Shown here: piece after piece, positions 1 to 40,917 of the stretch
Layout: the number at the start of each line of letters is the position of its first letter
Position numbering within the stretch: the first letter of the stretch is position 1
NCBI GenBank assembly: GCA_049999805.1
Contig: JBNGIO010006043.1
Coordinates: 1-40,917 of the forward strand
DNA length: 40,917 nucleotides
Source: Folioceros fuciformis
Lineage: Eukaryota
Direction: 5' to 3'
The notes under the pieces: generated by a model
The model's input: only the letters and a program-made list of their open reading frames with translations
What the model was told of the DNA's origin: nothing
The model's database searches: none
Made by a program: the position numbers and the translations under genes

Positions 1-2004
1 TGGAATTCATTTGATGTGAATTCCCCACCATTATCTGATCTTAAGGTTTTCAGCTGCTTCCCTGTCCACCGTTCAGCAAACTTGATATACTCCTTGAAGT
101 AGGAGAAACACTTGCTCTTCTGTTTCAGGATGTATGTTGTGACAAATCTGCTCTTGTCATCGGTGAATGTGAGAAAATATTTTCCTCCACCAATTGAATC
201 CTGGGACAGAGGTCCACACAAATCTGTGTGGACAAGTTCAAGAAGATCACTTGCTCGGTGAGGGGCCTGATTTTTGAAGGTTGCTTGATGTCTCTTCGAA
301 AGAACACAAGCCTCACATAATGGAATTGAGGTCAAGGGACCAATGGGTCCATCCTGGTAAAGGTCACTAACTGCTAACTTTTGCAGCTTTGTCATGTGTG
401 GGTGACCTAAGCGGGCATGCCACAACTGAGATTTAGCTATCTGTTGTGCTGATGCCTTGGAGACATCCTGTGTCAGGTGGGACTCAACTATTCCACTATT
501 CAAATGGAGACGGAACAGGTCATGGTCCGAAGACCCATATGCAAGTACCTTCATATGGTCAAATGCATCTATTATCTGATAGTCTGTTCTAGTAAATAGC
601 ACATGGCTGCTATTGTCTGCATTCAGTCTTCTAACTGAGATGAGGTTTCTTGTCATGTCAGGTACATAGTAGACATCCTGCAATTTGAGGGTTAGTCCAG
701 TGGGAACTGGCAAGTCTACAGTACCTCGACCAGGAGAGACGAGAGACCTATCGTCTCCAAGATACACATACTGGTCAGCGAGTGGCCTGTATGTTAAGAA
801 TGCGTTTTTTGTCAAAGCAGATATGAGCTGTGGCTCTTGTGTCGAGATACCACTCTGCAGTGGGTTTAAAATATGCTTTGGCAGACAAGCATGTGGGTAG
901 CAGAAGTGGACTTGCAAACTCCCTTGTCCCAACTGTGAGGGCAGAAGGAGTGTTTAGCTTCTTGACCACAACGTGTGTCTCAGCTGAAGATCCCTCCTTG
1001 CGAGGAATTCCAGCCTGCTTCTTCCGACACTCACGTTCCCAATGGCCAGGTAACTTGCACCAGTTACAAGTACCTGCCTTTTTGGTTTTCTTGTATAGAG
1101 TGTTGGTTCCCTATTGACCAGCACCCTTGAAATTACTGCTGCTTCCACCCTTTGAGAAGGTCCTTCTACCTCCTCGTCCTTGGTTGGATGTGTACAGGGC
1201 CTGCTGCTTCCCTGCACGCCTATAGTTGGTCTTGCTTGCTTCCTCTTGAAGCATTGAGCTCACCAACTGTGAAAAGCTCATCTCCGGCATTTCCACACCT
1301 TGTTTCTTGGCTAACAATGTAGCCTGTGTCTGTGCAGCAGTATGTGAAGTCACAAAATGTGACCACGATTCTGGAAGAGAAAGAAGGAGTCTCATCACCA
1401 TCTCATCGTCTCCTATGGTGACTTTGGAGGCACCCTGAAGCCTTGAAGCTAGGGTCCTGAAGGTACTCACGTGCTTTTCCACTGAGTCCCCATCCTTCAT
1501 TCTCAAATTTTGGAAGCTGTCATGATAATTTTGGAAGCATGTACCTGACATGACAATTTTGGAAGCTGTCATTGCACTGACCATGTTCTGCCCTGCGTAG
1601 AGTTCCTTGAGGCGAGTTAGGATTTCGGCTGAAGTCTTCACCCGAGCAGTCTGCCTCAACATTTCAGATGTTAGGCCACTGCGTATGAGGTACTTGGCTC
1701 CGCTGTCTTTAGCTAACCAATCTGCTTCCCCTGCTGTCCCTTCGCCAGGATACTCTACCTTTCCGGTTGCATATTTAAGGAGGCCTCTCATCTCGAGAAC
1801 ACCCTCCATCCGGATGAGCCAGATATCAAAGTCATTGCCGTTGAACCTGTCCTTTTCTTTGAAGGATTCACTACTACCAAAGTTAGAAGACAAGGCTGTA
1901 TCACCCATGTTTCTGGGTATAGATTGCTCTTCTATGACAGGTTATGACTCTGCTTTATTGAAGACGTTTCCAAAATCGTCTAGATCACTTTCTGATCGTT
2001 CCAT
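1..2004 (-). pseudogene. copia gag-pol of element 1 (gag, zinc knuckle, protease, integrase N-terminal/core), disrupted
   Basis: ATG at 2004 is in frame with ORF 1111..1908. In-frame stops at 1942-1944 (TAA) and 1111-1113 (TAG); frameshift in the T-run at ~805-810. The protease DTG motif reads DTR. Confidence 0.88.
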
Positions 2005-2014
2005 TCATTATTAC

Positions 2015-2704
2015 TTACAGTGCATGTTGGTTTTGACGTTGCAGGGTTTGATCCCATGCAATACTGCGTGCTGCTATCCTAGCACTTCTCATCTCATATT
2101 TGTTATAGAAGTAAGTTGAACATGAAGGGCAAGAATTTGGTGAGTCAAACTTCCTTTCACGATTTGTTTTACTTACGTGCTTGTAGGCAGTACCTCTAAA
2201 TGCTGGGTTAGACAGCAACTCGGGTTTTAATAGCATTACAAGTTTGTAATCTATATGTGCAAGCTGTTCTTTTAAATCCTGCAAATCGATACTAGCTGCA
2301 GAAACATGACCTGAAATCTGGTTGAATCTATTTTCAACATTCCTATTGTTAGTTTCAAGACGCTGAACAATTGTGTTTACACTGGTTGATTGTGCAGCGC
2401 CAGTCGTGAGGAAACTGCATTGGCGTACAATTTCAGCAAGTGGTTGATTTTGTACAGCGCTCCTCTCCACTGTGAATGTTAGGTCGAGTTCTGTTGGGAA
2501 CAGCAATTCAAGTAGTGTGTTGAATGCTCCCTTCAGTGTTTCTGTTTGCGCTGGTTGAGTCCTGTGCCTGTGGCTCCATTGTTGAACACACACATGTAAT
2601 TGGTTGGCAAGGGTAAATCTGTCAGCGACTCTGTATCGATTCTGCCTAGGATTGTTGTTCCCCCTAGGATTTTCCTGGGGAGCAAGATAGATATAATTTG
2701 CCAT
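2015..2704 (-). CDS. Extra 229-aa ORF of unknown function inside copia element 1, between PBS and gag
   Basis: Uninterrupted 229 codons in AT-rich sequence; start context GCC-ATG-G. Heptad-like segment (IVQRLETNNRNVENRFNQISGHVSAASIDLQDLKEQLAHIDYKL) and a CPSC motif. Stop lies 10 nt before the gag ATG. Confidence 0.65.
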   Translation of the reverse strand: MANYIYLAPQENPRGNNNPRQNRYRVADRFTLANQLHVCVQQWSHRHRTQPAQTETLKGAFNTLLELLFPTELDLTFTVERSAVQNQPLAEIVRQCSFLTTGAAQSTSVNTIVQRLETNNRNVENRFNQISGHVSAASIDLQDLKEQLAHIDYKLVMLLKPELLSNPAFRGTAYKHVSKTNRERKFDSPNSCPSCSTYFYNKYEMRSARIAARSIAWDQTLQRQNQHAL

Positions 2705-3056
2705 GGCCTTGAGCCAGGATTGTTATATCTAAAATGCAGAATTTCTGCATTATAGAGATCCTTTTATATAAATCATATACACTAATCTGCCTATTAGACA
2801 GTTGTTCTAGTGCATCTGCATGGAATTGTCTAAACTGACAATTTAATGGAAATGCATTAGAAAATCTGCCTGATTCAGCAGCATTCTGTGTTAGATTTTT
2901 CTAAAAGAAAATATCAGAAACTATTTTCTTGAAAATCTTCTTGTTTCTTTCTTTTGAACTCATTTTCAAAATAGGAATACTAAAGAAGATAAATTCGTGC
3001 ACATTTTCTAGTGCAGAATTTCAATGCGCATCTTCCTACATGCATTCTACAAAGTG

Positions 3057-3069
3057 AGCTCTGATACCA
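3057..3069 (-). promoter_or_regulatory. Primer binding site (tRNA-iMet) of copia element 1
   Basis: Plus strand agctctgatacca = TGGTATCAGAGCT on the minus strand, the standard plant iMet PBS. Confidence 0.9.
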
Positions 3070-3389
3070 TAACAATATTATACAGATTATGTAGAAATAA
3101 ATCACATCATTAAGTANNNNNNNNNNNNNNNNNNNNNNNNNNNNNNNNNNNNNNNNNNNNNNNNNNNNNNNNNNNNNNNNNNNNNNNNNNNNNNNNNNNN
3201 NNNNNNNNNNNNNNNNAAGTAATTACATTGTATATCAAGAAAGGGGTTAAAATGCTTATGCATTAAAAGACAACTTAAACTAAATGTGAAAAGACATAAC
3301 GTTTCTCAAGCGACGTAACCCTAATGAACGGTCATGTACTATAGCTTTAACTAAACCCAATTAATACAACCCTAATCATGACTCCAACA
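3070..3389 (-). repeat. Putative 5' LTR of copia element 1 (interrupted by assembly gap 3117-3216)
   Basis: Begins TGTTGGAG on the minus strand at 3389 and abuts the PBS at 3069. AT-rich and not similar to the LTR of element 2. The partner LTR would lie outside the window. Confidence 0.55.
3117..3216. other. Assembly gap (100 N)
   Basis: Run of exactly 100 n; the flanks share aagta. Confidence 0.99.
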
Positions 3390-6300
3390 CATCTATTCTG
3401 TTAAAGACATGTTGTCACAATGCAAGATTGTTGGCCCTTCTTGCTTCATACCTAAGTCTTCACAAAGCTTCCTTTCCCACTCAGCCTCCTTAATGGCTTC
3501 AATGAGTGCCTTGTACTCAGACTCTGTGGAATACAGAGAGCTGGCTGCTTGTTTTCTACATGACCAATTAACTACAGAGGAGTTGGCTAGAAAACAATAA
3601 GCCGATATAATTTTTCAAGTATCAGCGTCAATGGCCCAGTCTGCATCTACATAACAAGTGAGCTTAAGATGCTTCTTCTTAAATGAGCTTAAGAGCTTAA
3701 GATGTTGTGTTTATCGCAAAGACCATAATTGGATGTGCCCTTGAGGTACCTCATGATACGCTTGAGAGCTACCTAGTGATCCTTTCCTGAGTTTTCAAAG
3801 AACTGAGCAATTGCATTTACAGTGTTGGAGATATCAAGCCTTGTTTGATTACTCAAAAACGTAAGAGTACCAACGGCCATACGGTAAGGAATATTCTCCA
3901 TCTCTTTCTTGTCCTCTTTAGATTGTGGACATGAGGCAAATGAGAGCTTGACGCCAAAGGCACCTGGAGTGTTTGATGCCCTTGCACCCTCCATGTTGTA
4001 GCGTTTGAGCATACCAGCTACTTCTCTACCCTAATGAAGATAAATAGCACCTGTACTATCTTTGTGTACATGCATGCCAAGGATATACTTAACCTTTCCC
4101 AGGTCTTTCATCTCGAATTCCCTGCTGAGGTCTGCCTTAATCTTGTTAACTAGTTCTACGTTATTTCCTCGAATGGCCAAGTCATCCACATAGAGAGCGG
4201 CTAGCACAAGAGAACTATCCTTGCATAGAACATAGATGTTAGTATTAGCTTCACTTTGGATAAAACCTATTTTCTTAAGATAAGTGTTCATCCTCTCATA
4301 CCACAGACGTGGGCTTCACTTGAGTCCATAGATGGAGCAATTGAGTTTACACACCTTGTGTGGGTACGTCTTGTCTTCATAATTCTGAGGCTGATCCATG
4401 TAGATCTCTTCCTGAAGATGACCATAGAGAAAGGCCGTGCACACATCTAGCTAATAAATCTCTAAGTTGAATTCAACACATAAAGCTAGAACCATCCTAA
4501 CCGATGCGGCTTTAACTACAAGTGAGTAAACCTTATCGCTCTGATAATCAACTCCTCTTTCTGACTATACCCCTTAGCCACTAATCTCGCTTTGTAGCGA
4601 ATTCTAGGCTCAACTTCTTGGAACTTAGTCTTAAGAACCCATTTGCACTTAATGCTAGTTCTACCCTTAGGCAGGCTCACTAGAGACTAGGTATTATTTC
4701 TGATCAATGAGTTATACTCATCATCGACGGCCAGCTTCCATTTAGCTGCCTCAGGTCTAGAGTAAGCCTCCTGCAAGGTTAAAGTATCTCCCTATGCAAC
4801 ACCAACACGTAAGGCATAGAGAGCATCCATTGAATCAACATAGGTTAAACCAGCTTGATTAAACTCAATGTCAAACGATTGTTCCTTCCAAAGGTGAGGT
4901 TGGCGCACAAGAGTAGGATATCTACGCTCAGGAGCAACCGTTGGCCTAGGAGGGGATGGAGGAGTGTGGAGAGCATGAGGAATATCATGAGGCACCATGT
5001 GATCAAAACCAACATGTTCAACATCACCTTGTTCCACAGGTAGGTCCTCCGCTACTCCCTCGTGATCTATCTCCATGTCCCCCTCTTGAGCAGGAATAGG
5101 TGGCGTAGGAGCGGGCTGCATGTGTGGAACAAGACCAACAACTGGCGGCACCGGACCTGCTTCAGGGATAGGAGCCATAGGAAGAGGAGGAACACCAACA
5201 GCGGGAAAAGTAAAGGACTGAACGATGTGTTCAAAACAAATGGCACTAGGGGAGTGTGGAGTGCTCGAGCCAGAAGAAGCACCATCAAAGACGCTAGGAG
5301 GAAGCTCCAAGGGTGTCCCAAGAGCAGGCACTAGCTTGGCTTCATCAAAAGTTACAGTGCGCGCATAGATTGGAGTCCGAGTGGCCATGTCCACGAGCTT
5401 GTAGGCTTTGCGAACATTACAATAGCCCACAAAGACAAGCTTTCGAGCACAAGCGTTAAGCTTATCACGATGCTATGAAGGAACAAGAGCATAGGCCAGG
5501 CAACCAAAAACACGAAGATGTGAAATTGGAGGCTTGGTCCCATGCCAACACTTGTAGGGTGTATGGCTGGAAATCGCCTTGGTAAGGACCCTGTTCTTAA
5601 TGTATGCCGCAGTAGACACAGCCTCAGCCCAAAAGGACTTGGGCAACTGAGACCAGGTCAGCATGGCACGAGCCATGGACATCAAATCGCCAGGTTAGCC
5701 TTCTCGGCCACGCCATTCTACTCAGAGGTGTAAGGTACAGTGAACTGCCTCAAGACACCACTCGGCTCGTAGAAACCACGAAACTGATGATTGTTGAGTT
5801 CCCCCACATTGTCGAATCGAATACATTTAAATTGACGGCCAGTCTGTAACTCGGCCATAGCAACAAAAGGTGAGAACACATTAAACGAGTCTCTCTTAAG
5901 TTGGATGGGAAACGCAAATGTATATTGACTGAAGTCATCAACGATAGTCATAAAAAGGTTAGCCCTGCCTAAGGACGCAACAGGGAGAGGACCACATAGG
6001 TCTACGTGGACCAGGTCAAGAGGCGTAGTGGATCGACGAGCAGGAAGAGTAGGATATAGAAAACTTCTCTATTTCGCAAGCACACAAGCTTCGCAAAGAG
6101 GCAGTTTCGAGAAAAGCATTGGAAGTTTATCCCGATACAAATCCTGCTGAGTCGTGGCCAAAAGCCGGGCTGGATTAAGATGTCCAAGCCGACAATGCCA
6201 AAGGAGAGTGTCAGTGGGGTGGGATCTCCTCAAAGGCTAGTTGCCAGGAGAGGAAACCGCAAGGGAGCCAATCGCCGTAAGCACGGGCTGACCTGAGAAG

Positions 6301-9300
6301 ACATACAAGTCATGACGGGGACGACCTCTAGCAACAATCACATGGGGTTTAGAGAACTGATATAGAAGGCAATCTCCAGACCCAAACTCAAGACGAAAGG
6401 AGCCATCCCAAACAAGTTGTCGGACAGAGATGAGATTCTTGGCCATCTGGGGAACATGTAAAACTTGAGAAAGCACCATGAGGGATCTGTCATCCAGAGT
6501 AAAAGCAGCGGAGCCAACCCCCGCAATAGAGAGGCCAGAGTCATCTCCAAGGAGGACGAAGCGCTGAGTGTCAGTAGCCGCCTCGTAGGTGGTGAACATG
6601 GTCTTGTGACTACATATATGCGTTGACGCAATAGAATCAATCAGCCATGACTATCTGTATTCAAATGCCACAAGAAAAATTCCAGGTGAAGAAGGATTCT
6701 TGGCCTTGGGCGAGACAACAACGGTGTTAGCTGTACGCGGCGCATGCTTGGTCTCACCTGCTTGCTTCTTCCTACACTCTCGTTCCCAATGACTCGGCTT
6801 TTGGCACCAATTACATGTGCCTTGCCGCTCAGGAGTCTTGGATGAGGAGGTTGCTGAGGAAGAAGGCTTGTAGGAGCCATGGGAATTGTTCCTGTTATTA
6901 GATTTGTTAGAAGGCGTACGCTGTTGTTGACGTCCTTTGGCGACGAACATGACCCGGTCGCCTCCATGTTTTGAAGTCCCGACATTGAACCTGGCAGACT
7001 CCTCTTGAAGGAGAGCTTTAGCAATCTCGGACACAGTGATGTTGGGTACCATACCCAACTGCACAGCCTGATGTGCATTTCTCACCGTTTGGTTTTGTGA
7101 GGAAACAAATGTATAGTAGCCAGCCGGGAGGCTAGCCAATAACTGAATACCAGCTTCAAATTTGGTGATGGTTGTCTCAAGAGTAGCAAGCTGGGCTCGC
7201 AAATATCGAAACTTGCTAATGTGCTAAGCAATGCTGTCATTGGGGCCCATGTGAGAAGAATAGAATTCCAGGCATACCGTGACAAGCGTCATCACGGTAG
7301 TGGACTGATAGATGTCAGTGATTTGCTTCCAAGCTTCAGCAGATGTGGACGCACCATCCGTATGGTGTAAGGTAACCTCATCGAGGCTAGAGATCAACAT
7401 CTGCATAGCTTGTCGATCTTGACGAACTCAAGCATCAATGGCAGCCAGATTAGCAGTGGGCTTGGGAATGGTTTCTTCCACGATGGGAAGAAGATCCTAA
7501 GTGTTGAGCGCAGTCTTCATGCGCTTTGACCACACCTCAAACTTCGTACCGTTAAATCTATCCTTTTCCTTGAAGTTAGTATTGATATTAATGATGTTGA
7601 AGTAAGGTTGAAGTGGTGAAATACCAACTGGGGGTGGAGGCAGTGGGTTGCCTGCTGGTCCACCAAAAGGTGGTGGGTTACCGGTTTGCCCACCTGGAAG
7701 TGATGTGGGTGGTGACGGGGGTCTTTATCCTGGCCTTGGAGACCCAAGGAACCCCGACCCAGAGGTAGAAGCGCTTAACATCTCTTGTGGGTTTTAAACC
7801 AACACGTAAGCCGACAATATGTTATGACACAATGCCGAGAGTACCAATGAAAGAAGAATCACAAGAAATTATTTAATAAAAGTATTTCCCTTCGTCTTTT
7901 AGGATCCACCCACCACAGTTATTTCCTCCCTTGCTTCAAGTGATCTAAAGGAGAGGAGGAGAAGGCTCGGTGACTTCAGTGCTCTCTGAACTGACACTCC
8001 CTTGAAATTCTTGAATTTGGGTTGTCAGGTGGAGAAGATCTTCGTTGGCCTTGGCCACTGCTTGCCAGAGAGCAAGAAGTCTGGCAGGCCGTGTTGGTGG
8101 ATTGAATGGAACAAGAGAGTCTCTAGACAAAGGGTTCTCCAGACAAGTCTTCAATGGGTTTCCGGTGAGGATGCACCCGCATTGCCAAACCGCGATGAGG
8201 AGGAGGCAAAGGATTGGCCTCGATCTTCACGGGTGCAAGGTTGAGTCCTTCTCCAGTCAAAGCCGTAGGAAAAACACAGGTAAGTCCTTACTGTGCCAGA
8301 AAATCGCCATGAAGGGGTGCCAACAAGTGTGAAGAGGCACAAAATGGAACTGGTGCCAAACTTGGCCGCATTCACATTGGTTCGTGGATAAAACGAACCC
8401 ACCTCCACGAAACGACGAGTTAAAACGTCGTTTCGGGGGTCTCGCACCGATTCGGGGGTCACGCACCGATTTGCAGGTGCGTGCGCCTCCTCGCGTGCAG
8501 GGCAAGCGCCTTGGGCGCAACACTCCACCGCGATCGCGATGGCGGCAGCACGCTCTTCACTGAGCGCCTGCAGCCTCGACCGCTCGGGACGGTGGTCTAG
8601 CGACGGTGCGTCCCAAAAAATGCCTTCCTCCTGCACAGTAATCAAACAAGATTGAGCTCCTGGCTTGACGATTTGCCCGTGCACCTGGGTAGAAGCAAAT
8701 CCACCACAATCCGAACAAATCCTCATCCTACAGGGTTAGAGAGGAGAGCATTATCGATTGTCTGCTCCTTAGGAAGGGGCAGAAGGCTCCGAGACGCCCC
8801 GGGGACATGATCATCTTCTGGAAAACCGTCGTGAAGACAATCAACTTTTGGGCTTGGTCTTGGTGTGCAGGTGCAAGCACGGGTGCGATTTCAGCCAAGT
8901 GCTCAGGTCCTTCTGGTAAGGTGGAGGTCCTCTCCAAAAATCAGGTCATGAATTGAAGCAAAACGGCCGAAATCCTCCCCAACAAGATTGCTAGAGAAAA
9001 GCATTCAGAGGAGCTCTCCTATCACAGATTGCACCCATCTTGGTGCGATTCGATGGGCAAGAAATGGCGTTCATCTAAGGCGAGTTGGCCTAGGCAATCG
9101 TGCCTCAGAAAGATGGGGAAATCGTACATTCCGACGTCGTCTCCTGGCCATGATCGGGCTGGGAGGTTGCGCACGACGAAGTGTAGGGGAGAGGCAGAAT
9201 GCCTCTCCCTTTACTTCGAAGATTCATACAGCCTGCTGTATGTTCATATGTACACGAAAGCATATTTAAATTGTAGAAAGTTGACAAGGGTTTGATAGCC

Positions 9301-9466
9301 CGTCTTCTACCAAAACTCCAATATTAAGCACCTTGGGCTTGGATCAATACCCAGATGGGTAAAGAAAATTTTTTGATGGCATATTCATAGCCAAGACACA
9401 ATGCTACCTAGACTATCTAGGACAAACAATCTTCTAGGCATAATAAACATAGGCCATATGAGTTGT

Positions 9467-9479
9467 AGCTCTGATACCA
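9467..9479 (-). promoter_or_regulatory. Primer binding site (tRNA-iMet) of copia element 2
   Basis: Plus strand agctctgatacca. Confidence 0.9.
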
Positions 9480-9675
9480 AGTTAGAATTGCTAATGTAGA
9501 AGCAGATGCATCGAAAATGATCTATTAGCAACTGAATAGGTGGATACAAAGTAGCAGTTTCGGAAGGGGTGTGCCCTGTAACTAACCGGCCAGTTAACTA
9601 ACTACACTTATAACTAGGTCTAGTTAGGCTAACCAACGTAATACAGAACCATGTGGTCTGCCTTATATTCCAACC
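9480..9675 (-). repeat. Putative short (~195 bp) 5' LTR of copia element 2
   Basis: Adjacent to the PBS; the distal end reads GGTTGGAATA on the minus strand (TGTTGG-like), with TATAAG inside. No second copy in the window, so the boundary is approximate. Confidence 0.5.
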
Positions 9676-10584
9676 CTAATGCACCAGCAAGTAAGGATCC
9701 CCATTCATCAAATGTGTGCTTACAACTTTTGCTAGCCGGAATTTTTGATTATGGATATCGTTCTCACATGGTGTGATTATAAACATCTCTTTTTTATCTC
9801 CAAAACATATCCATTCATTTGAGCAATCTCAATCGCTTGCCTTCCAGTACTTCTACAAGCACCTAATAGTATGTACATGAGCATTTCAAGTAGGTTTTGT
9901 TAGATGAAGCACAAAAGTGCTTCATCTAACAAAACTTCTTTTAATATCTGCATAGGTAGAAACAGTCTTTTCACATCAGCCTTTTAATTTTGTACCACTT
10001 CCAGGGGTTTATAGGTTCGAATTCCACTTTGTTATCCACAAATATTGTGGACTTCCTACAAAGGGTTAGAATAGACAAATACTCTTTGCCAACCCTTTGT
10101 CCATTATCCTTTAGGATGGATAGGCCCCATTCATGGTTTTTGCATAGTGATGAAATATTCCAGCTGTAGTTTGAAACAGTTAATGGTGAATTCCATTGTT
10201 TCCTCTTCTCCAAGGTGTGTAGGATAATATTAAGGCCTTTGCATTAACCTTATTATCCCACACAAGACAGAAAACAGACAAAAGCTACTCTAGACATTGT
10301 GACTCTCTAGAGTAAGGGCATGATATGCTATTTGGGATTACATCGATGCCTTGGAGCCGCTAAATGTTATTCTCTTAAAAAACATTTGTCTTCCATAGTA
10401 GTTGCCTACTGTGGTATGACCTTGACATGTAGTCTTAGAGGTGGTTTAGGGTTTACGAGTGCTTCTATTTGCTCTTCATGATCGCATGCGCTAACACCAC
10501 TCATCTCCTCCTTCAACCCGCTAAGCCCCAAAGCACAATTTGAGTGATTGAAACATCTTTTTCCAACTGATTCAATTCTTTTGC

Positions 10585-21333: not shown

Positions 21334-24246
21334 ATGGCCACAGTCTGGCAACCGGATTCGTTGTGGACTCAACAGAATCGTGGTGTGTGTACAAGGATTC
21401 TGCCAACAGCTCGGGCTCCCGCTCACTTCAATTCATGGAATGAAGCCCAGGCAAACAAGCAAGCGTCCAGGTGCAGTAGTTCGAGGAGCCCAGCACTTGT
21501 CATTCCGAGGAAATGTGTGGGTGGAGACGGATTATCCATGGATGGTCGTCGCCAGGAGCAGGAGCACTTGTGGCAACAGTTCTTTCTGGAGCCTACCATG
21601 TGGTGGGACAGCAGACGAGATAAGAAGAGCTCACATGCGCCTGACTTCCGGCGGAAGGGGTCAGGGGAGGTCCTGTGGTTAAATAGCATCCTCAAACCAG
21701 CTTGGGTGGATGAGCAGCTCGTGTGTTTGGATGAGCAGATGGGTCATGGTGCCTCTGCTGTCAAGTCCAGCTCTCCGGATAAGCCTGAACCCAGTGGCAG
21801 GAGTGCAGGATCGGTGACGCCTGGATCAGTGAGTATGTTATGTCAGCAGGGAAAGCTTTCTGAGGCTGTCGTAGCCCTGGAGTGTTTGGGGGAGACAATG
21901 TCTGCCATTTCTCCGTCTCTCTTTTCCACTGTGCTGAAGCTGTGTGCGGCTAAGAAGGATCTCGTTGTTGGGCGACGAGTTCATGAGCTGACGGTCAAAC
22001 TGGGGTACGATTCGAATGCGTACTTGGGGAAGCATATCTTGCGCATGTACGCATGTGGGGGTAGGCTAGAGGAGGCCATGAATGTGTTCACCAGGGTGAT
22101 CAAACCAGACGCCTTCATGTGGTCTTCCATAATCTCTGCACATGCTAAGCAGGGGAAACCTAAGGAGGCCATACAACTGTACCATGAGATGGGTGGGTCG
22201 GGAGTGAAGGCGGATGCCCACGTCTTTGTAGCTGTCCTTCAAGCTTGTGCATTCGCTAGCGACTTGGAATCTGGTAGAAAAGTGCACTGGGATGTGTTGC
22301 ACAGTGGCATTCCTCTGAACTTGTTTGTTGGCACCTCCCTGGTGGGAATGTATGCAAAATGTGGTGCACTGGAGGATGCTCGAAGGGTTTTTGACAACTT
22401 GGCCACCAAAGATGTGGTGACATGGACGGCTCTGCTTGGGGGCTATGCCGATCGTGGCTTCAGCCAAGAGGCTCTTGTTCTGTATGGACAAATGGAGGAG
22501 GAGGGCCTCATTGTGGCTGACCGTGTTACTTTTTCTTGTCTTCTGAAGGCATGTACACGCGCTGGCGACGTACTGAAGGGCAGGCAGTTGCACTCACAGA
22601 TAATGAAAGGGGTGCTGCTGCATGACACCGTGTTGGGCAACAGCCTGGTGGACATGTATGTAAAATGTGGTGAACTGAAAGATGCACATCAGGTTTTCGA
22701 CAGCTTGGCCACAAAAGATGTGGTGACATGGACGACCCTTATTGCTGGGTATGCACAGCAAGGTCTTGGCCAAGAGGCAATTGGTCTGTATGGGGAAATG
22801 CAGGAGGAAGGCCTGATTGTGGCTGACCATGTCACTTTTGCGTGCCTTCTGAAGGCCTGTACGAGCGCTGGTGCCTTGCAGAAGGGCGAGGAGCTATATT
22901 CACAGATTGTGGAAAGAGGACTCTTAGATTATCCCCTGGTGGGCAACTGTCTGGTGGACATGTATGCAAAATGTGGTGAACTAGAGGGTGCACGCCGGGT
23001 TTTTGACAGCCTGGCCACGAAGGATGTGGTGACATGGACCACGCTGATTGCTGGGTATGCAAATCATGGGCTTGGCCAAGAAGCAATCGTTCTGTCTGCA
23101 CAGATGGAGCAGGAGGGCCTGATTGTGGCTGACCATGTTACTTTGGCTTGCCTTCTGAAGGCCTGTGCAAGCACCGGGGCCTTACAGAAGGGCAGGCAGC
23201 TGCACTCACAGGTTGTGGAAAGAAAATTGCTAGATAACGTACTTGTGGGCAACTCCCTGGTGGACATGTATGCCAAATGTGGTGAACTGGAAGATGCACG
23301 CCGGGTTTTTGACAGGTTGGTCACCAAGGACGTGGTGACTTGGACCGCCCTGATATCTGCGTACGGTACTTGTGATGACGGTCACAGTGCACTGGCTTGT
23401 TTTGATGAAATGTTGCTTGCCGGTATTCAGCCTGATGGTGCTACATTATCTTGCCTTCTGGCAGCCTGCAGTCACGAGGGGCTTGTCCACGAGGGTCGCA
23501 AGCACTTCGATTCCATGGCTGAACAGCATGGTATCAAACCCACGGTTGAGCATTACAGTTGCATGATTGATCTCCTTGGGCGTGCGGGCTATCTAGATGA
23601 GGCAGAGAACATGCTGTTATCATGTGAAAGCCAAAGCAATGTCGTGGGGTTGACATCGTTGTTGAACGCCTGCAAAAGTCACGGGGATATTGAGAGGGCC
23701 ACGCGGTGCTTTGAAACTCTGCTCAAACTAGAGCCTCAGAGTGCTTCCGCATATGTGCTCATGGCCAATGCCTACGCAGACGCAGGTAGATGGAGCGATG
23801 TGGACAGGATCGAAACCCTGAGACTGGCCGCAGGAGCTAACAAGAAACCTGCCATGGCAACCATCGAGGTGAACACGCAAGTACATAGATTTGTGGTGGG
23901 AGAAAAAAGAGAGGATATTGCACTTCAAGTAGAGAGCACGAATGCTCGGTTGAAGCAGGAGGGCGGCCACGCCCCTCACACAAACTTGGTGTTGAAGCCA
24001 GTGTGCGAGAAGGAAAAGGAAGATGCGCTTTGCGGGCATGCTGAGAAGCTAGCTCTTGCATTTGGTCTCTTGAACACTCCGAGCGGGACACCCCTGGTGG
24101 TAACCAAGAATCTCCGCATGTGCAGTGACTGCCACAGTTCCACGGAGGTCATGTCAAGGCTCGAACGGAGACACATTGTTGTAAGGGATGGGTACCGCGT
24201 TCATCGATTTGCGGATGGATCTTGCAGTTGTAAGGGTCGACCTTGA
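21334..24246 (+). CDS. PLS-class PPR protein with E1/E2 and a DYW:KP (GRP-terminating) deaminase-like domain and an N-terminal PDF motif; candidate organellar U-to-C RNA editing factor
   Basis: Intronless 970-aa ORF with P-L-S triplets and P2-L2-S2-E1-E2. KPAMATIE replaces the PG box; HAEKLA; CSDCH; C-terminus CSCKGRP. Ser/Arg-rich N-terminus is compatible with a transit peptide. Confidence 0.95.
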   Translation: MATVWQPDSLWTQQNRGVCTRILPTARAPAHFNSWNEAQANKQASRCSSSRSPALVIPRKCVGGDGLSMDGRRQEQEHLWQQFFLEPTMWWDSRRDKKSSHAPDFRRKGSGEVLWLNSILKPAWVDEQLVCLDEQMGHGASAVKSSSPDKPEPSGRSAGSVTPGSVSMLCQQGKLSEAVVALECLGETMSAISPSLFSTVLKLCAAKKDLVVGRRVHELTVKLGYDSNAYLGKHILRMYACGGRLEEAMNVFTRVIKPDAFMWSSIISAHAKQGKPKEAIQLYHEMGGSGVKADAHVFVAVLQACAFASDLESGRKVHWDVLHSGIPLNLFVGTSLVGMYAKCGALEDARRVFDNLATKDVVTWTALLGGYADRGFSQEALVLYGQMEEEGLIVADRVTFSCLLKACTRAGDVLKGRQLHSQIMKGVLLHDTVLGNSLVDMYVKCGELKDAHQVFDSLATKDVVTWTTLIAGYAQQGLGQEAIGLYGEMQEEGLIVADHVTFACLLKACTSAGALQKGEELYSQIVERGLLDYPLVGNCLVDMYAKCGELEGARRVFDSLATKDVVTWTTLIAGYANHGLGQEAIVLSAQMEQEGLIVADHVTLACLLKACASTGALQKGRQLHSQVVERKLLDNVLVGNSLVDMYAKCGELEDARRVFDRLVTKDVVTWTALISAYGTCDDGHSALACFDEMLLAGIQPDGATLSCLLAACSHEGLVHEGRKHFDSMAEQHGIKPTVEHYSCMIDLLGRAGYLDEAENMLLSCESQSNVVGLTSLLNACKSHGDIERATRCFETLLKLEPQSASAYVLMANAYADAGRWSDVDRIETLRLAAGANKKPAMATIEVNTQVHRFVVGEKREDIALQVESTNARLKQEGGHAPHTNLVLKPVCEKEKEDALCGHAEKLALAFGLLNTPSGTPLVVTKNLRMCSDCHSSTEVMSRLERRHIVVRDGYRVHRFADGSCSCKGRP
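22321..23350 (+). repeat. 306-bp tandem repeat (S-P-L triplet, ~3.3 copies) within the PPR gene
   Basis: S motifs start at 22321, 22627, 22933 and 23239, exactly 306 bp apart, with near-identical DNA (e.g. atgtatgcaaaatgtggtg, gatgtggtgacatggac). Confidence 0.92.
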
Positions 24247-38700: not shown

Positions 38701-39544
38701 CACATGAGAGCAGATGGACGATTCGAGCTGTGCCACAGGATGGCGGGGAAGCTGGCGGTGCAGGTGGATCGCTTTCCACGTTCAATTCCAATGCGGAAAT
38801 CATCCATCAGTAAGCATCGAAAAGCAACGATCTGACAAGCACCCCGCCACCGGACCCGCACGAGGCAGTCACCTATCCCAGCCCCTCCCGGGATCTACTC
38901 CTGCACTGCTCCACGACTGACCATGTCGCAATTTGCAACGGAATTGACGGGGGAGGTGGAGCCGTGGAGCGGTGAGCAGATCAAGGGGATTCTGCGCTTG
39001 CCTTCCTGCAGTGGCGCACGACCTAGACCCCAGCCGAGGCTCACACTATTGCGGGCGGACACCAGATCCGGCCAGGCCAGGGGAGCCATGAAATTGGACG
39101 CAAGGACTCGAATTCCTGCAACCTGAGCCTACTTCCGTGCGCAGCCTGGGGACACATGTGAGCAGCGGCAAGAGCCCGGGGCCCGGGGTCCGGGGGCCCC
39201 GGTGAGGCTGCAAGGCAGCGTACGGCGCCGCGGGAGAAGAGGAAGAAGAAGAAGAGGAGGAAGCAGGATGCAGGAATGAAGAAGGAAGAAAGGAGCAGAC
39301 AGAAGAAGGAGGAGGAGGAGGAGGAGGCGCAGGTGGAGGCAAGAGAAGAATGAGTGACAGGCACGTAAACACGGGACTCACCGTCAATGCCACCAGGGTC
39401 TGCGTTGGGGCCAGCAGGAGAAGGCGCAACATGTTTAAGACCCCAGGCCTCGTGCGGAAGCGAGGGACCTGCCCCGGGGTCGCCAACGGAGGCGTCAAGG
39501 CCCGCGTAGGAGGAGGCCCCTTGCGGTGGAGCATAATATTCCAT
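35714..39544 (-). CDS. Five-finger CCCH zinc-finger RNA-binding protein (ZFN/C3H family), multi-exon; first coding exon ambiguous
   Basis: Five C-x8-C-x5-C-x3-H motifs with YPERPG/FPERPG and GLPLRP leaders ([50 protein letters not shown]). Conserved MWQM at 38107. Start is ATG 39544 or 38563. Confidence 0.9.
39232..39350. repeat. GAA/GGA purine-rich microsatellite tract in the first intron of the CCCH gene
   Basis: Runs of gaa and gga triplets. Confidence 0.8.
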
Positions 39545-39999
39545 CAATCATGCCCGCGTCGCTGCTGTGCTCCAGGAATTGCCAGCTTCGCTCCTTCCTA
39601 GCGTGAAATGCACGCACAATTTCAGCTCCCGGAATGCCTCCCTCGCGTTCTCCTAGGCAGATTCAACCTCCACCTCCCGGGCACGCAATTGTGACATGGG
39701 CAGCCGCAGTCGGGGGCAAATTTGGAGCCACCCCAATTTGGCCGCTTTCGCCGCTTTCAATTCCTGCTCCCTGATCCGCCACAGATCCGCCACGGAAAGA
39801 GATCGGAAAGTCTGGCCAGGCTTCGGCCCGGGGCAAGAGCTCGGGCTTAGGGGACGGGAAGGGAGCAAAGGAGGGAGGGAGGGAAAGAGAGAGGAGCAGC
39901 TGCTGCTGCCTTGCTCCTCCCGCTCCGCTCTCGCAACCGAGGAAGCTGGTCACGGCTCTGCCCGCTGCAGCAGGAGGAACAGCAGAGAGGCTGGAGCGG

Positions 40000-40540
40000 A
40001 GCAGGCCAGGCCAGGCCAGGCCAGGACGGTGAGAGAGAGGGAGGGAGGGAGGCAGGGACGGAGGGAGGGAGGGAGGGAGGGAGAGAGGGAGAGAGAGAGT
40101 GAGAGAGAGAGAGAGCCTCCTCCTGCTACTCCTGCTGCTGTCGATGCTGCTGCTGGTGCTTCTGTTGCCGGTGCTGATGCTGCTTTGCTTTGCTTCTGCT
40201 GCTGCTGATGCTGCTGGTGTATGAAGAGTGTGCGCTCTTCTCGGCTCTGCTCCCTCTTGTCTGTGTGCGTAGAGAGTCTGGTGGCTACTGGTTGCTGAGT
40301 GCGGTGTGTGGTGTGTGTGTGGTGTGTGTGCGGTGCGCTATGCTGTGCTGTGAGCTCTCTCTTCTGCTTGCCTGCCTGCCTCCTTCATCCGTCGTCGCCG
40401 TGTGCTGCTGTAGCTCTGTGTGCCCCCCGCAGCAGAGGTGTGTTGAAGACGACAAAAAGAAAAAAAAAAACCCGAGGAGGAGGAAGAAGAAGAAGAAGAC
40501 GATGACGACGACGAAGGAGAAGAAGAAGCAGAAGAATGAG
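40000..40540. repeat. Compound microsatellite/low-complexity block: (GCCAG)n, (GGGA)n, (GA)n, (GCT)n, (TG)n, poly-A, (GAA/GAC)n
   Basis: Directly visible; lies in the probable 5' UTR/promoter of the CCCH gene. Confidence 0.9.
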
Positions 40541-40917
40541 GGGGTGGAAGCAAGGTCGTGGCAAGGGTGCACCCTTGGCAAGGGCTTCCCCATAGCCCCA
40601 CACACAGGCTTCACGACCGCGCAGTACAGTCCTTAAGTGCGAGCGCGGAGTAGGCGGCAAGGCATCGGAGGCGGGCACACAGTTGGCCACGTCCCGGTTG
40701 TCGGGGCGTCCGCCGTCGTCGCCGTACCTGGGAGCAATCAATGGGCGAGAAGCTTTGGCACATGGGGCGGAATCGGCAGCGGGTGGACGCGTCCACCCGG
40801 TGCGTCCAGAAGCGCATTGCCCTTGGCAAGGGCAGGAAGGAAGGCAGCGCGGTTCCCCGCGCGCGGTCGGGCCCCGAGTTGCCGACTGCTTGCGCGCTGG
40901 AGCGCGCGCGGTTACAG

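Follow-up and report, generated by a model that had tools for sequence, protein, structure and literature searches.

An extra open reading frame with a coiled-coil pattern between the primer binding site and gag of a defective Ty1/copia element from Folioceros fuciformis

Introduction

Extra open reading frames (ORFs) are numerous in plant LTR retrotransposons, and nearly none of them has a known function. In the portion of the survey by Neumann et al. 2019 (PMC6317226) drawn on here, extra ORFs of at least 250 codons occur in 582 of 5,410 Ty1/copia elements and fall into 45 mutually dissimilar groups, and a known domain is found in just 21.4% of all eORF proteins. The same survey defines the classes eORF-5'F, eORF-5'R, eORF-3'F and eORF-3'R, and within that portion SIRE, with its 3' forward ORF, is the one copia lineage singled out for extra ORFs. 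It also names tRNA-Met as the primer used by most copia elements. Vicient and Casacuberta (PMC7264820) describe, in the excerpt consulted, aORFs that lie upstream or downstream and in either orientation in plant LTR elements, as well as transduced ORFs that are confined to one or few copies. Two further sources extend the picture to gypsy elements, with conserved helical 5' aORFs in Tekay (PMC11728184) and with sORF1 and sORF2 upstream of gag in the MDG1 elements of insects (PMC11952523).

Here we describe a 229-codon ORF that lies in sense orientation upstream of gag in a copia element. In copia, a 5' sense ORF whose product has a clear coiled coil would offer a structurally interpretable case outside the gypsy lineages best known for 5' ORFs.

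Results

Layout and defects of the host element

The window is the whole stretch of DNA analysed, 40,917 nucleotides from Folioceros fuciformis, and the extra ORF lies close to its start, within an element that we call element A. Judged from its sequence, element A is a defective Ty1/copia retrotransposon, since it carries a copia-type gag (PF14223, E 1.2e-22 on 1908..1111 of the minus strand) and its integrase follows directly after the protease, with Pol_BBD, gag_pre-integrase and rve in that order over 932..3. The features that concern us, in the order in which the element is read, are as follows.

3070..3390, minus strand: presumed 5' LTR of element A, directly upstream of the primer binding site, split by a gap of 100 N at 3117-3216
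3058..3069, minus strand: primer binding site (PBS), TGGTATCAGAGC, an exact 12-nt match
2705..3057, minus strand: AT-rich upstream leader of 353 nt with 11 upstream ATGs, GC 0.317
2015..2704, minus strand: extra ORF, an ATG-to-TAA frame of 229 codons plus TAA, predicted pI 9.5, without a transmembrane segment
2489..2491, minus strand: codon 72 of the extra ORF, Glu in the window and a stop codon in other copies (position 2491 is C in the window and A in contigs of the runs X2 and X3, introduced below)
2222..2368, minus strand: coiled-coil segment, residues 113-161, made up of seven heptads in which hydrophobic residues fill 13 of the 14 a/d positions
1913..2018, minus strand: candidate 106-nt intron, whose donor, GTAAGT, overlaps the stop of the ORF and whose acceptor, a pyrimidine-rich CAG, lies 4 nt short of the gag ATG
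1111..1908, minus strand: gag, 265 codons, cut short by an in-frame stop (PF14223, E 1.2e-22)
3..1110, minus strand: zinc knuckle and protease in the gag frame as far as 777, followed in the +1 frame (932..3) by Pol_BBD, GAG-pre-integrase and integrase core

The 12-nt sequence TGGTATCAGAGC, which we take to be complementary to the 3' end of initiator tRNA-Met, has a second exact copy at 9468-9479, ahead of another copia element in the window. The 5' edge of the LTR of element A would lie near 3390: the presumed LTR can be aligned block by block with the stretch that precedes the PBS of that second copia, and the coding similarity of the second copia stops at about 3400. Because the 100-N gap falls inside the presumed LTR, its length and the join are uncertain. 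At its other end element A leaves the window at the first bases, and the reverse transcriptase, the 3' LTR and the target-site duplication lie outside.

The gag frame is interrupted by a stop at 1113-1111, beyond which it continues across the zinc knuckle and protease as far as another stop, at 777. The CCHC knuckle (CX2CX4HX4C) sits in this frame, downstream of 1110. Since the protease stays in the gag frame to 777 while the integrase is read in the +1 frame from 932, at least one frameshift must lie between 932 and 777. On the upstream side, the gag frame is closed 11 codons before the gag ATG.

Position and start of the extra ORF

The extra ORF is in sense orientation, 353 nt past the PBS and 106 nt ahead of the gag ATG, and forms a complete start-to-stop unit. 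Its ATG is the first of the open frame; the nearest upstream in-frame stop begins at 2725, which leaves 18 nt between the two. The start context, GCC-ATG-G, has a purine at -3 and G at +4. The upstream ATGs of the leader open frames of 1-28 codons. The layout (PBS 3069..3058, ORF 2704..2015, gag from 1908) agrees with the first-pass annotation, which had described a stop-free sense ORF of 229 codons with a strong start between the PBS and gag of a copia element, and its account of a broken gag-pol alongside is roughly matched by the stop and the frameshift given above.

Two further elements of the leader can be recorded. A TATA-like motif is found about 60 nt upstream of the ORF ATG, and directly 5' of this ATG, at 2725-2759, is a near-perfect 17-nt hairpin palindrome with a 1-nt loop. 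A nested DNA transposon was also considered, but flanking terminal inverted repeats were looked for and not found. No second copy of the ORF was found within the window.

Coding origin of the frame

When the 1147-nt leader was simulated 20,000 times with a first-order Markov model and all six frames were counted, an ORF of at least 229 codons appeared once, and the longest ORF of the simulated leaders averaged 66 codons. The remaining five frames across the extra ORF carry 10-19 stops. The ORF is also a GC island, with a GC content of 0.422 as against 0.317 in the upstream leader and 0.368 in the spacer. No tandem repeat array was detected in the DNA under the ORF (TRF, score of at least 30), so neither the open frame nor the heptad pattern described below is due to a tandem repeat.

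Measures of codon composition are more equivocal. The base composition by codon position gives a chi-square of 17.8, compared with a mean of 8.7 for stop-free random ORFs, and 4% of these nulls reach 17.8. In codon usage, 4-14% of stop-free nulls score equally well, so the usage is not clearly gene-like. The simulated ORF lengths, the heptad pattern and the GC island lead us to regard the frame as derived from a true coding sequence. That it is open purely by chance is unlikely, even when the size of the scan is taken into account.

Properties of the predicted protein

The ORF would encode a basic protein of 26 kDa with a near-neutral helical core. Over residues 113-161, 13 of the 14 a/d positions are V, I, L, F, M or A, and the heptads run without interruption. 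This core count was equalled by 1 of 5,000 shuffled proteins and by 1 of 5,000 translated stop-free random ORFs (P about 2e-4), and the contrast between core and surface, 0.757, was reached by none of the 5,000 in either null. The signal is independent of ORF length. The coiled coil is flanked by Arg/Lys-rich ends, the N-terminal 55 residues with a net charge of +4 and the C-terminal 67 residues with one of +7. The maximum Kyte-Doolittle mean over 19 residues is 0.89, which indicates that the protein has no anchor, fusion peptide or signal peptide.

The first-pass annotation had reported a coiled-coil-like protein with a CxxC motif. The coiled coil stands, and so does the motif, which occurs once (C192-x2-C195). 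A CCHC zinc knuckle was considered for it and rejected: C192 and C195 are without partner His or Cys, the closest His being at 176 and 227. Structure prediction, which the same annotation had pointed to, returned helices from AF2 run without an alignment but at low confidence (mean pLDDT 36.9 over the full length and 42.8 over residues 98-229). A two-copy complex prediction for residues 98-170 scored 0.10 against a mark of 0.32, a 'no answer' that is evidence neither way.

Homology and structure searches

The ORF returned nothing from Pfam at E up to 10 except TBCC_N (E 0.059). With phmmer against 1.84 billion representative proteins, one match was obtained, P0002, which we reject as spurious, its score being summed over 9 stretches of a repetitive 1447-aa protein. 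A word-index search near the length of the ORF gave 298 candidates, none at E of 0.01 or below. None of 115 pattern matches in metagenome contigs and none of 22 in viral contigs was confirmed, and an Rfam scan of 1800-3116 was empty up to E 1. A collection of 15 billion contained no exact copy of the ORF, of gag or of the PPR protein nearby, and the bona fide gag, searched against longer proteins, gave 2,066 candidates with none at E of 1e-5 or below. These results for gag and for the exact sequences indicate that close relatives of the source genome are poorly sampled, which makes the blanks obtained for the ORF weak.

In the ESM Atlas the ORF protein had a recognition value of 1405, where 91 in 100 proteins of known families reach 2300, and its neighbours were phage scaffolding proteins at chance-level scores of 0.78-0.80. 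Among PDB sequences, the top phmmer match was 6v47_B, 'Hemagglutinin HA2 chain' (E 0.037, 17.2 bits), in a nearly gap-free alignment of ORF residues 104-202 with HA2 46-143 that includes a Cys. Two more HA chains followed at E 0.6, a score equalled by the archaeal coiled-coil protein CdvA.

Related contigs in public sequencing runs

Variants and related contigs were taken from public sequencing runs, of which X1 and X2 come from one sample (organism A) and X3 from organism B, under another species label. The figures given below are from 40 of 264 differences and 25 of 194 pieces, and absences among them prove nothing.

The whole ORF is covered by one contig in each of the organism A runs, among the pieces listed: X1 record 6 (1651-2977) and X2 record 11 (1325-3116), both of which differ from the window at 12 places. 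For gag, the same runs contain several more diverged contigs, such as X1 record 3, with about 15% differences (about 85% identity). An equally diverged (~85%) contig over the ORF was not found in the organism A runs among the pieces listed, nor was any second contig at least 80% identical to it. The lack of such a second contig argues against a recently captured host parent gene.

Organism B provides contigs that bridge the ORF to its surroundings. X3 record 17 spans 1847-2259 and joins the gag start to the 3' part of the ORF, and X3 record 21 spans 2921-3116 and joins the leader to the PBS. X3 records 19 and 20 both lie over 2801-2950 and show 25 differences and 1 difference, respectively, which implies more than one copy in organism B. 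The bridging contigs place the ORF in a repeat family common to two species, as opposed to an insertion private to the copy in the window. Restriction of the ORF to a single copy, which the first-pass annotation had weighed against its own proposal, is thus not what we find.

The ORF is damaged in these copies. The stop at codon 72 is present in two of the three contigs that cover the site, namely the sole X2 contig and that of X3, while X1 has the letter of the window; X1 and X2 thus differ here despite coming from the same sample. Inside the ORF, X3 record 18 has 169 letters against 182 in the window, a net deletion of 13 nt. The gag of the X3 copies has single-base deletions as well, so decay is general to these copies, and a once-functional ORF and a never-functional one are not separable on this ground.

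Differences in the ORF number at least 8 among those listed and include R223H, A103T, C96R (in a codon that is also altered at its third position), V84I and the stop at E72. Five of the 8 are non-synonymous where 5.7 would be expected under neutrality, and 3 are synonymous on their own; once mutation types are considered, this pattern fits neutrality. The stop and the deletion argue against present function or domestication, and in the copies visible now the ORF appears no longer to be under selection. The first-pass annotation had entertained a present function, which these results do not bear out. Of the decay that it had named as the opposite outcome, the stop and the neutral pattern are found, while the presence of the ORF in a second species goes the other way.

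X3 shares with X2 the variant at 2480 in addition to the stop at codon 72. The variant at 2037, a CpG site, and those at 2480 and 2491 are incompatible on one tree, which makes it unsafe to root on X3 as outgroup and so to read the stop as ancestral.

Over 900-3116, C>T and G>A dominate the differences between window and contigs (72 of 188 places in X1), the pattern to be expected where methylated cytosines of silenced repeats are deaminated. A further run, X5, guessed to be RNA, gave a single contig among the pieces listed, which covers 992-1050 only.

The second copia and the surrounding window

A second decayed copia occupies about 3400-9700 on the minus strand, with the identical 12-nt PBS at 9479..9468. 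Its pol similarity stops near 3400, where the presumed LTR of element A begins, and this suggests that element A inserted into it. Between its PBS and the start of gag similarity at 7577 are about 1.85 kb, an unusually long leader, which is unrelated to the extra ORF. This leader contains a GC-rich frame of 191 codons (8726-8151) for which we found no Pfam match, no homologue and no long heptad run. Protein identity between the second copia and element A is 29% in gag, 37% in the zinc knuckle and protease and 33% from Pol_BBD to integrase, and at 29-37% a comparison of the two leaders neither supports nor refutes a lineage-wide 5' gene.

Beyond both retrotransposons is a gene-dense region (15364-37249), with exons matching aldose 1-epimerase, the Sec1 family, ubiquitin C-terminal hydrolase and CCCH zinc-finger proteins. 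It includes, at 21334-24246 on the plus strand, an intronless PPR protein of 970 aa with an E motif and a DYW deaminase domain (PF14432, E 1.7e-32), which contains KPAMA and ends in GRP instead of DYW. We presume this to be the DYW:KP variant, a form that in hornworts, ferns and some lycophytes is associated with U-to-C RNA editing, and the gene hints at a non-seed plant as the source. The end of the window (39000-40917) is very GC-rich, of low complexity and open in several overlapping frames on both strands, and is probably a simple-sequence region rather than genes.

Discussion

Origin of the extra ORF

The reading that we favour, and for which we judge the chances to be evenly balanced, is that the ORF is the decaying relic of an extra ORF that is specific to its family and occupies the 5' forward position ('eORF-5'F') of a now defective Ty1/copia retrotransposon. 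Family-wide conservation and a function of the protein would draw no support from homologues, none having been found.

A captured coding sequence is an unlikely alternative. Template switching would in this case have copied a small cellular or foreign coding sequence into the leader, where it was carried as passive cargo without a part in transposition. It would account for an ORF of coding origin that is without a retroelement-like domain, and the unrelated sequence that fills the leader of about 1.85 kb in the distant second copia could be read in the same way. Many different sources are assumed for extra ORFs (PMC6317226, in the portion used here), and transduction by plant LTR elements is documented (PMC7264820, in the excerpt consulted). 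Against capture, no cellular homologue was found among the 1.84 billion representatives, no second contig of at least 80% identity covers the ORF in the organism A runs among the pieces listed, and the ORF is a complete start-to-stop sense unit and not a fragment. Moreover, where transduced ORFs occur in one or few copies according to that excerpt (PMC7264820), the junction of ORF and gag is here seen in a second species.

We consider it improbable that the ORF is a presently functional accessory or domesticated gene expressed from this locus, whether as an anti-silencing, movement or particle protein. An intact ORF beside a broken gag-pol, the strong start context and the TATA-like motif some 60 nt ahead of the ORF would all suit such a gene. 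The substitution pattern is neutral, however, the X2 contig from the same sample as the intact X1 form carries a nonsense variant, and a transcript from the LTR would place 11 upstream ATGs before the ORF.

There is a still slimmer chance that the frame is fortuitous, a non-coding leader that was opened lately by loss of the stop at codon 72. Parsimony with X3 as outgroup, which shares both that stop and the 2480 variant with X2, would make the stop ancestral; the substitutions look neutral, codon usage is matched by 4-14% of nulls, the ESM and AF2 scores are low, and the ORF was picked from a very large scan that is subject to look-elsewhere effects. With that stop counted, however, the frame would still contain a single stop over about 230 codons, compared with 10-19 in the other frames, the seven-heptad pattern occurs in 1 of 5,000 random ORFs, the ORF coincides with a GC island, and the rooting is unsafe given the conflict between 2037 and 2480/2491.

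Finally, the match to 6v47_B raises the prospect that the helical core (104-202) is the relic of an influenza HA2-like class I fusion-protein core, an env-type module that would have moved upstream of gag and lost its membrane parts. We regard this as very doubtful: the E value is marginal, the two further HA chains do no better than the archaeal CdvA, all three HA chains are homologous to one another and so not independent, no hemagglutinin match appeared in Pfam at E up to 10, the ESM Atlas neighbours are phage scaffolding proteins at chance level, and a maximum hydropathy of 0.89 leaves room for no anchor, fusion peptide or signal peptide. The same low standing applies to the joint reading in which the ORF, with an HA2-related core, would be what remains of a true third gene in a copia family of non-seed plants that has yet to be described.

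A possible mode of action and expression

Returning to the family-specific extra ORF, we can sketch how its product might have worked while the family was active. The protein may have oligomerised through the coiled coil of residues 113-161, and its basic ends may have bound the element RNA or Gag, so that, by analogy with other systems, it would have acted as an accessory particle or chaperone protein. The ORF could have been translated as the first cistron of the genomic RNA. Given the 11 ATGs ahead of the ORF and the 25 ahead of gag, this two-cistron reading needs a mechanism of translation or splicing, for which we can name a candidate only. In the alternative, the candidate 106-nt intron would be removed and the ORF read as an N-terminal extension of Gag. 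Removal of these 106 nt (2018..1913), as computed from the sequence, would join the ORF to the gag ATG in frame, which is not so for the join from another GTAAGT at 2176.

Comparison with known systems

Small proteins with a coiled coil and basic regions are encoded directly upstream of capsid or enzymatic genes in other systems, as in L1 ORF1p and the P3/VAP of caulimoviruses. The resemblance is one of analogy only, since the searches gave no sequence or structural match between them and the extra ORF, in which no RRM, CTD or proline-rich DNA-binding motif was identified. The env-like eORF-3'F of SIRE (Sirevirus) is likewise an extra ORF of Ty1/copia with very heterogeneous sequence, but it lies downstream of pol, while the ORF described here is upstream of gag.

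Among gypsy elements, the 5' aORF of Tekay, a Ty3/gypsy chromovirus, is similarly in sense orientation upstream of gag, largely helical or disordered, basic and of unknown function (PMC11728184). It differs in belonging to another superfamily, in its length of about 400 aa and in being kept in 500 of 523 sunflower copies, whereas our ORF is seen in few contigs with a stop and a frameshift. The MDG1 sORFs also lie between LTR and gag on the sense strand, and are read from the transcript of the element itself (PMC11952523, as excerpted). They are products of an insect gypsy element, of about 110 and 70 aa, and sORF2 is a membrane FAST-like fusogen, in contrast to the extra ORF, which has no hydrophobic segment.

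The closest correspondence is with the eORF-5'F class, as described in the portion of the survey drawn on here (PMC6317226). Like its members, the extra ORF is on the forward strand between PBS and polyprotein, separate, domainless, dissimilar to the other groups and of no tandem-repeat origin, and its 229 codons fall short of a cut-off, 250 codons, that is operational. The first-pass annotation had set the layout apart from the downstream extra ORFs that are normal in copia, and this overstated its novelty, the class having already been described in the survey that counted 582 of 5,410 copia elements. The extra ORF is an orphan, and a new case within the known class of 5' extra ORFs.
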